A stretch of 64,000 bases of DNA from Candidatus Makana argininalis (lineage in GTDB: Bacteria > Pseudomonadota > Gammaproteobacteria > Enterobacterales > Enterobacteriaceae): positions 82,258-146,257 of the forward strand of contig JBISJS010000001.1 in the NCBI GenBank assembly GCA_044442745.1. Reading direction: 5' to 3'. The notes under the pieces are model-generated. The model was not told the origin of the DNA. It saw nothing but the letters and a program-made list of their open reading frames with translations, and ran no database searches. Made by a program: the position numbers and the translations under genes. This document shows, in pieces, positions 1,084 to 62,827 of this stretch. Numbering within the stretch: position 1 is the first letter of the stretch; the number at the start of each line of letters is the position of its first letter.

Positions 1084-1147
1084 AATTTACATAAAACCAT
1101 AATATTAATTATTACTTAATAATTAATATTATGGTTTTATGTAAATT
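1084..1147. repeat. Perfect inverted repeat: 31-nt arms (1084-1114 / 1117-1147) with a 2-nt centre, in the prfA-suhB spacer
   Basis: Base-by-base check: AATTTACATAAAACCATAATATTAATTATTA / CT / TAATAATTAATATTATGGTTTTATGTAAATT. No mismatch. Confidence 0.9.
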
Positions 1148-1267
1148 TAAATATAATAAATATAAAATTTAATAATTTAGTATATTTATATTATTAATAT
1201 ATATATTTATTTTAAATAATAATTAATATAAAGTAATTATATTTAATTTAATTTAAATTATAAAATA

Positions 1268-2059
1268 ATGTATATTATGAATCCAAAAATTAATATTGCT
1301 ATTAGAGCCGTTAGAAAAGCAGGTAATTTAATAAATAAATTTTATGAATCTACAGATTTTTTAAATAAAAAAGAAACAAGTAATATTTACTATATTAATT
1401 ATATAACTAAATTAGTTAAAAATATAATAATATCTACTATCAATAAATCTTATCCGAAACATGATATTTTAGGATATAAAAAAAAAAATATAAAAAACAG
1501 ATCAATAAAATGGATTATTAATCCTATAGATAGTAAAATTAATTTTATTAAAAAATTTCCTCATTTTGCAATTTCGGTATCATTAATAATTAAAAATATT
1601 ACAGAATTATCTGTAATATATGATCCTATAAAAAATGATATGTTTACCGCTTTACGTGGTAAAGGAGCTTATTTGAATGGTTTTAGAATAAGATGTGGTT
1701 TAAATAAAAATTTAAATGGAACAATAATATCTTCAAAATTTACATTTTTAAATAAAAAAAATTATAAAATATATTGTAATTTATTTAAAAAAATATTTTC
1801 AAATAAAACATATTTACGCAGTACAGGTTCTACAGCTTTAGATTTATCTTATGTGGCTGCAGGTAAAGTAGATGGTTATTTTGAAATGTGTATAAATCCA
1901 ATTGATTTTATAAGTGGCGATCTTATTATTAGAGAAGCAGGTGGATTGGTAACAGATTTTATAGGGGAAAATAATTATTTAATAAATGGTAATATTTTAG
2001 CCGGAAATTCAAAAATAGTTAAATTATTAATTTATTATACAAATAATATTTTTAAATAA
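1268..2059 (+). CDS. suhB: SuhB / inositol monophosphatase family protein (active-site motifs degenerate)
   Basis: Collinear with E. coli SuhB: MNPKINIAIRAVRKAGNLI vs MHPMLNIAVRAARKAGNLI, also FPHFAISV, YDP..N..FTA.RG.GA.LNG, GS.ALDL.YVAAG.VDG.FE. The second ATG at 1277 matches the E. coli N-terminus better than 1268. Confidence 0.9.
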   Translation: MYIMNPKINIAIRAVRKAGNLINKFYESTDFLNKKETSNIYYINYITKLVKNIIISTINKSYPKHDILGYKKKNIKNRSIKWIINPIDSKINFIKKFPHFAISVSLIIKNITELSVIYDPIKNDMFTALRGKGAYLNGFRIRCGLNKNLNGTIISSKFTFLNKKNYKIYCNLFKKIFSNKTYLRSTGSTALDLSYVAAGKVDGYFEMCINPIDFISGDLIIREAGGLVTDFIGENNYLINGNILAGNSKIVKLLIYYTNNIFK

Positions 2060-2797
2060 TATCAAGAAAATTTTATTTTTTAAAATATTATATATAAATT
2101 ATATTTAAATTAATAAATTTTAAATTAAATCATAAATAATTAATATTAATTTTGAAAAATTAGATTAAGACATAGATATGTTAGTATATTATTACATTGA
2201 TATGTTACATTTAGATGTTATGAATAATTATTTATATTCCTAATATTAAAAATAGGTATATTTATAATTAATTTAATAATAAATTATGATATACAATTAC
2301 CAATTTATATATATTTGATAGTATATATCTGAAATTATTTAATTGAAGAATGTAATAAACTTATTATAAGTCATATAACTTTAAATACAGATGTATACAT
2401 AGATATAAAAACTATACAAATTATTAAATAATATGAATGCAAAATCGGAATAACGTTAAATTTTAAATTAAATTAAATTTAATTACAAATGATATATTCA
2501 ATTAAATTGTTATTTTAATTTTAATATATGTTAATCCTATATTATCATGTCAGACATTTTCATTTTCAACTTCTGAGAAAATAAAATAAAAAGAAAAATT
2601 TTTTTTAAAAAAATATTAATATTATTTTATCTGTAAATATAGATTTAAGATTAAATATCATTAAAATATATACTATTTCTGATGATAATATGTTTGTATT
2701 AGGTATATTATTTTTTAATAAAATTATTTATTTATAATTATTTATAATTTGCATTATGAATTATTATTATTATGTTTAATTAATTTATGGATGTAAA

Positions 2798-3796
2798 ATG
2801 ACTAAAAATATAGTATTTAGCGGTGTTCAACCATCAGGAAATATAACACTTGGAAATTATATAGGATGCTTAAGTCAATGGAAAAATTTACAAAAAAAAT
2901 ATGATTGTATTTATTGTATTGCGGATCTTCATTCAATAACTGTTATTAAAAATTATAAAAAATTAAAAGAATTAACTTTAGATCTTATAGCAACATATAT
3001 TGCTTGTGGAGTAAATCCATTAAAAAGTATAATTTTTATTCAGTCTCATGTAATTGAGCATACATATCTGAATTGGATTTTAAATTGTTATACTAATTAT
3101 GGTGAATTAAAACGTATGACACAATTTAAGAATATTTTACTAAATAAAAATAAAAATATAAATATTGGTTTATTAAATTATCCAATTTTAATGGCATCTG
3201 ATATTTTACTTTATAAATCAAATATAGTACCTGTAGGATTAGATCAATTACAACATTTAGAGCTAACAAGAAAAATAGCAAAAAGATTTAATTCAATACA
3301 CAAAAAAAAAATTTTTAATATTCCAAATGCTTTAATTTTTAAAAATACATCATGTATTATGTCTTTACTTAATCCAAGTAAAAAAATGTCAAAATCAGAT
3401 ATTAATAATAATAATGTAATTTATTTATTAGAAAATGAAAATTCGATTAAAAATAAAATTCAAAATGCAGTAACAGATTCAGATATACCACCTGTAATTA
3501 ATTACGATCCGATACTCAAACCAGGTATTTCTAATTTACTAAATATTTTATCTTTTATAAATAACATTTCTATACCTGAATTAGTAAAAAAATTTTATAA
3601 TAAAAATTATACTAATTTTAAAAAATATTTATCAGATTCTTTAATTCTAAATCTTCATTCTTTTCAAAAAAAATATTTTAACTTAAGAAAAGAAGAAGAT
3701 TATCTTTTGAAGGTAGTATCTGATGGTGCAATAAAAGCAAGAAAAAAAGCTAAAACAAATATTAAAAAAATTTATAAAAAATTAAATTTTAAATAA
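2798..3796 (+). CDS. trpS: Tryptophan--tRNA ligase
   Basis: MTKNIVFSGVQPSGNITLGNYIG matches the E. coli TrpS N-terminus. KMSKS motif present (KKMSKSD). The 332-aa length is typical. Confidence 0.96.
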   Translation: MTKNIVFSGVQPSGNITLGNYIGCLSQWKNLQKKYDCIYCIADLHSITVIKNYKKLKELTLDLIATYIACGVNPLKSIIFIQSHVIEHTYLNWILNCYTNYGELKRMTQFKNILLNKNKNINIGLLNYPILMASDILLYKSNIVPVGLDQLQHLELTRKIAKRFNSIHKKKIFNIPNALIFKNTSCIMSLLNPSKKMSKSDINNNNVIYLLENENSIKNKIQNAVTDSDIPPVINYDPILKPGISNLLNILSFINNISIPELVKKFYNKNYTNFKKYLSDSLILNLHSFQKKYFNLRKEEDYLLKVVSDGAIKARKKAKTNIKKIYKKLNFK

Positions 3797-62210: not shown

Positions 62211-62237
62211 GAATAAATAATAAAATTAAACTAATCT

Positions 62238-62280
62238 AAATTTTCCAAACCTCATACAAATGTATGGGTTTGGAAAATTT
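62238..62280. terminator. Long hairpin between convergent groEL and ruvX (candidate bidirectional terminator)
   Basis: AAATTTTCCAAACC-T-CATACA / AA / TGTATG-GGTTTGGAAAATTT: 20 bp with one bulged T. The 3' arm overlaps the ruvX stop codon by 2 nt. Confidence 0.6.
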
Positions 62281-62698
62281 ATAAATTTTTATTTAATGAT
62301 AATTTAATCCAATTTTCTAAAATTATAACAGCTGAAATGGAATTTACTTTTTTTAAAGATTTATAACCAAATCTATTAAATAATATTTCACGTGCTTCTA
62401 TGCTAGTCAGTCTTTCATCTTGCATTTTTATTTTATAACCAAATTTAATATTAATTTTATTAGCAAAATTACGTGCAAGTGTTGTTATAATTTGTTCACT
62501 ACCATCCATATTTAAAGGTAATCCTACTATTATTAAATATGGTTTCCATTCTTTTAAAATCTTACCTATATTTATCCATAAATTTTTATTTTTAATTTCC
62601 TTAAGAGGTCTTGCTTTGCAAGTTATAAATTGACCTATAGCTACGCCAATATTTTTAGTTCCAAAATCAAATGATATGATATTTTTTGATTTACAAAT
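62279..62698 (-). CDS. ruvX: Putative pre-16S rRNA nuclease / Holliday-junction-resolvase-like protein YqgF (RuvX), with no canonical start codon
   Basis: The track lists only 62279..62509 (MDGSEQ...). The same frame stays open upstream and encodes ..IISFDFGTKNIGVAIGQFITCKARPLKEIK....WKPYLIIVGLPLNMDGSEQ, collinear with E. coli YqgF LLAFDFGTKSIGVAVGQ...IIVGLPLNMDGTEQ. There is no in-frame ATG, GTG or TTG upstream of the essential FDFG motif. ATT at 62698-62696 lies 7 nt after AGGAG. Confidence 0.75.
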   Translation of the reverse strand: MCKSKNIISFDFGTKNIGVAIGQFITCKARPLKEIKNKNLWINIGKILKEWKPYLIIVGLPLNMDGSEQIITTLARNFANKINIKFGYKIKMQDERLTSIEAREILFNRFGYKSLKKVNSISAVIILENWIKLSLNKNL

Positions 62699-62827
62699 AA
62701 TTAATCTCCTTAATTGAAAATAAATATACTATAAAATTAAATAAGTGTAATATTTATTATATAATAAATATTACACTTATTTAATTTTATAGTATATTTA
62801 TTTTCAATTAAGGAGATTAATTATTTG
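62694..62827. repeat. 134-bp perfect, spacerless palindrome (67-nt arms) filling the ruvX-rpsF divergent spacer
   Basis: 62694-62760 is the exact reverse complement of 62761-62827 (all positions checked, p+q=125521). Each arm ends in AAGGAGATTAATTATTTG. The right-hand TTG is the rpsF start codon. Confidence 0.95.

Follow-up and report, generated by a model that had tools for sequence, protein, structure and literature searches.

Long perfect palindromes with co-evolving arms in the genus Makana, probably recopied by template switching

Long perfect inverted repeats lie in the spacers of a 64,000-nucleotide (nt) window, the whole stretch of DNA analysed here, from 'Candidatus Makana argininalis', a Morganella-like co-symbiont of Hawaiian Pariaconus psyllids (PMC11425488). 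The window covers positions 82258-146257 of a single 277,300-bp contig with 19.7% G+C (genome G000). An original prediction, made from the window, had named four such repeats at 1084, 7129, 33500 and 62694, with arms of 31, 36, 26 and 67 nt, and had proposed an active process that generates or preserves palindromes. The four repeats proved exact, and comparison with sister genomes bears out the process: orthologous palindromes have diverged yet remain perfect, and lineage-specific ones are inverted copies of conserved neighbouring sequence. The four repeats are probably members of a genus-wide population of single-copy, self-templated palindromes, the arms of which are recopied at the DNA level, most likely by template switching.

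The repeats differ in setting. The palindrome in the prfA-suhB spacer is a hairpin with 31-nt arms (1084-1114 and 1117-1147) and the loop CT, and that in the lepA-rnc spacer has 36-nt arms (7129-7164 and 7221-7256) around a 56-nt, partly self-complementary centre. Between the convergent genes zitB and ssb lies a 52-bp palindrome with 26-nt arms and no loop (33500-33525 and 33526-33551), which covers the last 19 nt of zitB. The longest, a 134-bp palindrome between the divergent genes ruvX and rpsF, has 67-nt arms and no loop (62694-62760 and 62761-62827). As RNA, the four are predicted to fold with -33.8 (z = -11.7), -45.1, -25.6 and -79.3 (z = -21) kcal/mol, respectively, and the z scores range from -10 to -21.

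Excess of perfect inverted repeats and co-evolution of their arms

Four further whole genomes of the same genus (G001-G004, 277-287 kb) were compared with G000; one of them is GenBank JBPPLQ01, also 'Candidatus Makana argininalis', reached via rpsF. All four are fully collinear with G000, and tblastn of G000 proteins gave a mean identity of 81-86%. A tree of 54 proteins rooted with three other tiny genomes has the form (G001,(G003,(G002,(G000,G004)))). Mapping by tblastn gave approximate gene boundaries in the sisters; orthologous spacers were extracted via their flanking genes.

Genome scans counted perfect inverted repeats with loops of at most 100 nt, at arms of at least 20 and at least 26 nt, and the null consisted of dinucleotide-preserving shuffles in blocks of 100, 300 or 1000 nt (40 each, 120 in all). 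The whole G000 genome holds 24 repeats with arms of at least 20 nt, compared with a shuffle mean of 0.05-0.18, and 15 with arms of at least 26 nt, compared with none in the 120 shuffles. The longest arm in any shuffle was 22 nt, and a dinucleotide-matched null thus does not reproduce the arm lengths. The excess is confined to one orientation. Direct repeats of at least 26 nt within 200 nt number 0, 0 and 1 in G000, G002 and G001, where inverted repeats with arms of at least 26 nt number 15, 17 and 13; the absence of a comparable excess of nearby direct repeats indicates that the generating process is specific to the inverted orientation.

The same excess is found in all four sisters. At the 20-nt threshold, each of the five Makana genomes has 17-30 repeats, and at the 26-nt threshold 9-17; the longest arm measures 51-76 nt. 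Three tiny genomes of the same order, with 37-40 kb of DNA outside open reading frames as against 42-50 kb in Makana and with a similar composition, are much poorer in such repeats. At the two thresholds, G114 (232 kb, 18.6% GC) has 8 and 1, with a longest arm of 27 nt; G045 (349 kb, 18.7% GC) has 4 and 0, with a longest arm of 23 nt; and G031 (253 kb, 21.4% GC) has 4 and 2, with a longest arm of 29 nt. The palindrome excess is therefore genus-wide and not universal to AT-rich tiny genomes. An initial count of 125 long palindromes in G031 was rejected, as all but four came from a run of 100 N pairing with itself.

Evidence for recopying comes from nine orthologous spacers, in which the arms differ by 0-26% plus insertions and deletions (indels) between species and show no mismatch within any genome. 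Arms evolving independently would show roughly the between-species divergence within each genome; the observed number of mismatches is zero, and the arms therefore co-evolve. The rpsB/map spacer (about 130-150 nt) consists almost entirely of palindrome in all five species, with arms of 41-51 nt and an interspecies identity of 83-90%. Perfect arms are also shared at the tandem gnd/trxA spacer, the divergent sufA-like/eno and rluC/rne spacers (the latter in four of the five species), rsmA/lpdA, zitB/ssb and two other sites. At zitB/ssb, the arms in G004 and G002 are perfect over 33 and 35 nt and only 74-80% identical to those of G000; G003 and G001 have only 12-nt repeats there. A comparison of arm divergence with general spacer divergence has little power, given that unrelated spacers align at 80% identity and orthologous ones at 87%.

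The anatomy of the palindromes is all-or-none: they are perfect within the arms and unrelated outside them. Among the 124 repeats with arms of at least 20 nt pooled from the five Makana genomes, loops are 8 nt or shorter in 90, and complementarity stops at the end of the perfect arm in 117. Long palindromes with one to three mismatches make up only about 6-8 of the 124. The arms have no G-T pairs, bulges or frayed ends, a feature which, together with arms of 36-60 nt that seem to have arisen in one step (see below), points to copying and not to stepwise selection.

Birth, growth and loss of palindromes

Several palindromes can be dated to single lineages. At position 64007 in G002, a new 60-nt right arm stands in place of the ancestral sequence, next to an ancestral left arm, loop and 8-bp seed stem. 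The spacer remains 169 nt long (169-170 nt in G000 and G004), so many simultaneous changes have increased complementarity with spacer length kept, as expected of a template switch. In the lepA-rnc spacer, all five genomes share the conserved right arm, but only G000 has the left arm, in which a T>C change specific to G000 is mirrored; the left arm therefore originated recently as an inverted copy of the right one. At both sites, the new arm reproduces, exactly and in inverted form, sequence that already lay beside it, another sign of template switching.

Older hairpins have grown outward at three loci and at a tRNA acceptor stem. Between convergent genes at 50223, a conserved 16-bp stem has been extended by an amount and a sequence specific to each species, and a conserved, GC-containing 13-bp stem at 180493 has likewise been extended outward to differing amounts and sequences among species. 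In G000 alone, the acceptor stem of tRNA-Ser (G000:C1:206280-206414, outside the window) has become, together with its flanks, a perfect inverted repeat of 30 bp, where the sisters have 10-12 bp. The leader and trailer of the G000 tRNA-Ser precursor would be fully paired. The short inverted repeats that seeded these events, as also expected of template switching, are the 64007 stem, the 50223 hairpin, the 180493 core and the tRNA-Ser acceptor stem.

Palindromes are also lost. The one between ruvX and rpsF is perfect and loopless in four of the five species, with arms of 67 (G000), 67 (G004), 69 (G002) and 76 (G001) nt, and comparing species shows 4-9 substitutions and 1-7 indels per arm pair, each mirrored in the other arm. 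It is missing from G003, where hardly any spacer lies between ruvX and rpsF. The nested place of G003 in the tree implies that the palindrome is ancestral and that this lineage has deleted it. A systematic attempt to tell which arm is ancestral, in which arms were aligned locally to sisters without the palindrome, gave a clear answer in only a few cases, as A/T-only sequence made the alignments too noisy.

These observations suggest a cycle in which a nascent strand would switch template at a hairpin during replication (quasipalindrome perfecting), with one arm rewritten as the reverse complement of the other. At birth, a short seed inverted repeat would lead to neighbouring spacer DNA being overwritten by an inverted copy of the opposite side. 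Older hairpins, such as terminator-like cores and even a tRNA acceptor stem, would then be extended outward until the arm meets constrained sequence. The arms would be re-homogenised after each substitution or indel, drifting between species and staying perfect within a genome, and a whole palindrome would occasionally be removed. The excess, its confinement to inverted repeats, the joint evolution of the arms, their origin as inverted copies, the growth outward and the deletion are all directly shown by the sequences; we infer template switching rather than recombinational conversion, copying that is much faster than mutation, and any present-day function the palindromes may have.

Quasipalindrome perfecting by template switching has been documented in E. 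coli and yeast (PMC7202029, PMC6357072, bioRxiv 10.1101/2023.08.09.552703), and template switching has been documented to create, homogenise and expand inverted repeats in evolution (PMC8794818, PMC13100816). As proposed for Makana, the quasipalindrome reporters of E. coli and yeast (the Ripley model) involve an imperfect inverted repeat that is perfected when the nascent strand is templated on the other arm, with several changes per event. In the reporters, the process is restrained by 3' exonucleases and mismatch-repair proteins, the genes of which are missing in Makana. However, the reporters record single events at one engineered site with arms of 17-18 bp, compared with dozens of natural sites and arms of up to 76 nt in five species here, and two comparison genomes that lack the same genes have few palindromes. 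Studies of template-switch hairpins (PMC8794818; PMC10710096; PMC13100816) describe similar one-step stems, mirrored changes that appear compensatory, and homogenised or expanded arms, but in rRNA and microRNA stems and in eukaryotic (yeast) promoters, and mostly short; in Makana, some whole spacers are now palindromes.

A related case is Blochmannia, also a reduced, AT-rich insect endosymbiont, with 6-20 palindromes per genome of 62-136 bp and at most 3 mismatches, which are almost all intergenic and hamper Sanger sequencing and assembly (Williams & Wernegreen 2010, PMC3017870). This report shows that long intergenic palindromes are not a new feature of reduced symbionts, as the original prediction had supposed they might be. 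The definition used there (arms of at least 30 bp, a gap of at most 20, at most 3 mismatches, in spacers) also takes in Makana palindromes; ten repeats in G000 have arms of at least 30 nt and loops of at most 18, all at least partly in spacers. The Blochmannia report proposed selection and did not compare orthologous palindromes, which in Makana reveal mirrored divergence and an origin by inverted copying. Spacer hairpins of Buchnera, another reduced symbiont, likewise occur at 3' gene ends and between divergent genes (PMC3164680), but they are short and contain bulges and G-T pairs, whereas those of Makana have perfect stems with sharp ends and several times the length. It is well supported that Makana displays a known mutational process at unusual density in one symbiont genus and not a new kind of element.

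New here is genome-scale evidence from five species that perfect arms co-evolve, that palindromes are born as inverted copies and that hairpins extend outward. With about 120 dated examples at many loci, the five collinear species form a natural record of how palindromes are born, grow, are homogenised and disappear. The record bears on how perfect stems and apparent compensatory changes can originate without stepwise selection, on how non-coding DNA is remodelled in shrinking genomes, and on whether copying can hand expression signals to neighbouring genes. In practice, such palindromes break or distort short-read assemblies and may mislead the annotation of start codons and spacers.

Evidence against copying and competing explanations

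Several observations weigh against template switching as a full account of the palindromes. They are not placed neutrally: convergent spacers (1.19 per kb, as against 0.72 in divergent and 0.46 in tandem ones) and short spacers (0.73-0.94 per kb below 200 nt and 0.22 at 400 nt or more) are the most densely populated. While 34 of 106 spacer palindromes lie between divergent genes, 58 of the remaining 72 are nearest a 3' gene end, and those in tandem spacers lean the same way, with 35 nearest the 3' end of the upstream gene and 14 nearest a 5' end. A gene end is abutted or overlapped by 35% of palindromes, compared with 3% when they are placed randomly in the same spacer. This non-neutral position means that selection or functional seed hairpins shape where palindromes occur. 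The pattern fits possible growth of many palindromes from terminator-like seed hairpins, possible arm growth until constrained sequence is met, or both, as the two are not exclusive. Moreover, several arms (gnd/trxA, rsmA/lpdA) are 100% identical across three or four species, which suggests sequence constraint. Sequence alone cannot separate template switching from RecA-dependent conversion between arms. In addition, all five genomes appear from their contig names and the published methods to be MEGAHIT k141 contigs, and a shared effect of the assembler on perfection is conceivable.

The repair-gene background is permissive but leaves the excess of Makana over the comparison genomes unexplained. 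sbcC and the genes for ExoI (xonA), ExoVII (xseA) and mutL were found in none of the five Makana genomes, in searches for which the positive controls worked. SbcCD cleaves hairpins, and ExoI reportedly cuts template switching short in E. coli (Laranjo et al. 2017, cited in PMC6357072). In yeast, mismatch-repair proteins keep the perfecting of palindromes in check (bioRxiv 10.1101/2023.08.09.552703). Yet G114 and G045 also lack ExoI, ExoVII and MutL, and their palindromes are few and short. The original prediction regarded this as a recombination-poor type of genome; recA is nevertheless present in all five Makana genomes (G000:C1:154874-155659), and recBCD and mutS are reported to be kept, which is unusual below 300 kb (PMC11425488), so that the gene content does not mark this genome as poor in recombination. 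The reported mutS without mutL is an odd combination. The presence of recA and the absence of ExoI, ExoVII and MutL were considered as causes of the Makana excess and rejected, since neither separates Makana from the comparison genomes: G045 has recA and, like G114, lacks the three other proteins. G031 keeps ExoI.

Selection on RNA structure alone, under which the palindromes would be terminators, 3' mRNA-stabilising hairpins or RNase III sites with pairing kept by stepwise compensatory substitutions, is an improbable explanation. The stems would then be long since helices made only of A-U pairs need length for stability, a proposal to which we give equally little credence. Such selection would account for the preference for 3' gene ends and convergent spacers, for the conserved hairpin cores at the centre of several spacer palindromes and for the high predicted stability of the RNA hairpins; Buchnera spacers are known to contain conserved terminator hairpins (PMC3164680), and rnc, the gene for RNase III, is retained. 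It lies directly downstream of the 7129 palindrome (7286..7966, plus strand; TIGR02191, E = 3.5e-65), as the original prediction had pointed out, and the right arm stops 29 nt upstream of its start codon. Rho-independent terminators have a short, G+C-rich stem and a U-tract past the stop codon, whereas these arms are 26-67 nt long and A/T-rich; some palindromes may nonetheless act as, or derive from, terminators. As a general cause, which the original prediction had listed as selection for double-stranded RNA, it fares poorly with the third of the spacer palindromes that lie between divergent genes, where a spacer-initiated transcript of either gene carries one arm at most, and at ruvX/rpsF the two Shine-Dalgarno boxes would be hidden in a 65-bp helix in any transcript that spanned the arms. 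The arms seen here are sharply bounded, uninterrupted and strictly Watson-Crick, whereas functional Buchnera hairpins contain G-T pairs and bulges (PMC3164680). Entire arms of 36-60 nt arise in a single lineage as inverted copies, equally AT-rich tiny genomes are without such palindromes, and the ancestral ruvX/rpsF palindrome was deleted outright in G003.

Template switching and conversion within a hairpin, the other options in the original prediction, both fit the sister-genome comparison. If gene conversion by RecA and RecBCD were the main homogeniser of the arms, in the manner of copy correction in plastid inverted repeats, template switching would account only for rare births; we consider this unlikely. 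The retained recA, recBCD and mutS speak for it, as does arm length, because the arms, at 20-26 nt or more, come close to the minimum that RecA needs to recombine sequences efficiently in E. coli. But G045 has recA and a longest arm of only 23 nt, arms 0-8 nt apart are poor substrates for synapsis between duplexes, and de novo births and outward extension require templated synthesis and not exchange. Even less credible, and scarcely deserving consideration, is an element like REP or MITE that a transposase has dispersed through the genome or that serves as the recognition site of a protein. Like such elements, the palindromes are intergenic, hairpin-forming DNA, but REP and MITE families consist of related sequences in many copies. 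In a blastn search of the 24 G000 arms against the genome, only A/T-rich partial matches of 14-35 nt were found elsewhere, and none covered a whole arm. The arms are therefore single-copy and mutually unrelated, as the original prediction had held in setting this class aside, and each palindrome is made of local sequence homologous to the same spacer in the sisters.

An assembly artefact, in which MEGAHIT or manual curation made or perfected the palindromes, is very improbable. The symbiont genomes of the Pariaconus study were assembled from Illumina reads with MEGAHIT v1.2.9 (PMC11425488), the G001 contig begins inside its own 152-nt palindrome, and G000 has an exact 141-nt tandem duplication 24 nt from a palindrome with 54-nt arms. 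The collections hold no independent assembly: a contig search with rpsF returned none for G000 and only its own GenBank record for G004. However, homologous palindromes of diverged sequence turn up at matching spacers in five independent assemblies. With few exceptions, the palindromes are below k = 141 in length, and single k-mers therefore span each of them plus unique flanks; imperfect arms assemble more easily than perfect ones, leaving no obvious route to false perfection; and a real palindrome of about the k-mer size or above would be expected to break a contig or to have other effects of the kind seen in G001 and G000. None of the four window palindromes is close to a contig join, and long palindromes in Blochmannia were verified although they hampered Sanger sequencing and Velvet assembly (PMC3017870).

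The ruvX/rpsF palindrome and other loci

The ruvX/rpsF palindrome carries expression signals of both genes. On its left, ruvX (yqgF; 62279..62689, minus strand; TIGR00250, E = 5e-35) has its translation-initiation region in the left arm; on its right, rpsF (ribosomal protein S6; 62825..63169, plus strand) has its Shine-Dalgarno box and TTG start codon inside the right arm, the end of which is that start codon. AAGGAG occurs in both arms. In G000, ruvX has no in-frame ATG, GTG or TTG start (window 62640-62710, minus strand); candidate starts are ATT codons 4-7 nt past the mirrored AAGGAG, and in the left arm the mirrored TTG runs straight into TAA. The mirrored TTG of G002 shares the reading frame of ruvX, and there ruvX apparently uses a copy of the rpsF start codon. 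In G003, which lacks the palindrome, rpsF has an ATG start and no recognisable Shine-Dalgarno box.

The left arm may thus supply ruvX with a mirror copy of the rpsF Shine-Dalgarno box, and a few palindromes may have been co-opted in this way. Since a two-arm transcript would lock both ribosome-binding sites in one helix, productive transcripts would be expected to start inside the palindrome and to carry one arm only. A promoter scan of the palindrome found mirrored promoter-like sites that are neither above shuffles nor conserved in the sisters, and no terminator-like site was found around it. It is conceivable, though doubtful, that mirror-copying is a source of expression signals and that a factor specific to Makana raises template switching above the level in other tiny genomes with the same nuclease losses. 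The ruvX/rpsF spacer would then, tentatively, be a symmetric divergent control region from which ruvX borrows its Shine-Dalgarno box and, in G002, the TTG start as well. The rpsB/map spacer might, with similar reserve, be a second example.

The 1084 palindrome is specific to G000: the sisters have no orthologous palindrome, and G002 has a different 19-nt one nearby. It lies in the deletion scar of prmC, which was traced in window positions 900-1267 and in the orthologous spacers of G001-G004. prmC is intact in G001 (281 aa; TIGR03534, E = 1.6e-76), its remnant is about 1 kb without an open reading frame in G003 and G004, and about 350 nt are left in G000 and G002. As G000 and G004 are sisters, the shrinkage occurred independently in G000 and in G002. 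An association with gene-loss scars, which the original prediction had put forward for examination, holds for this repeat and not for palindromes as a class, which are about four-fold denser in short spacers.

The original prediction had put the arms of the other spacer palindromes that it noticed at 16 nt or less, but the window contains three more perfect repeats. Between rsmA and lpdA, both on the minus strand, a palindrome at 23033-23091 has 22-nt perfect arms and a 15-nt loop and lies 7 nt past the lpdA stop codon. Four of the five genomes have it at this position, and its arms measure 22, 27, 27 and 29 nt; the aligned arms have no mismatches between genomes, and indel differences occur only in G003. 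An A/T-only repeat at 43957-44102, with 28-nt arms and a 90-nt loop, starts 5 nt past the 5S rRNA gene. A long, near-perfect palindrome at 58301-58381 has 21-nt perfect outer arms and 17 complementary pairs out of 19 further in; it is among the few imperfect ones, with its two mismatches inward of the outer arms.

Some further observations concern the contigs and a neighbouring gene. The tandem duplication in G000 (G000:C1:248178-248464, outside the window) lies in the sufA-like/eno spacer, is exact over 141 nt with 146 matched bases, and extends over the 5' end of the sufA-like gene. Since its period is the k-mer size of MEGAHIT, it is probably an untrimmed overlap of a circular contig; it inflates the spacer to 339 nt, compared with 124-260 nt in the sisters. 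The G002 contig starts and ends in poly(A) with a terminal overlap of at least 34 nt, so that its break is at a homopolymer and not at a palindrome. RNase E of G000 (G000:C1:265483-266757, outside the window) is reduced to 424 aa, and its match to the 1068-position rne model is confined to the N-terminal catalytic part.

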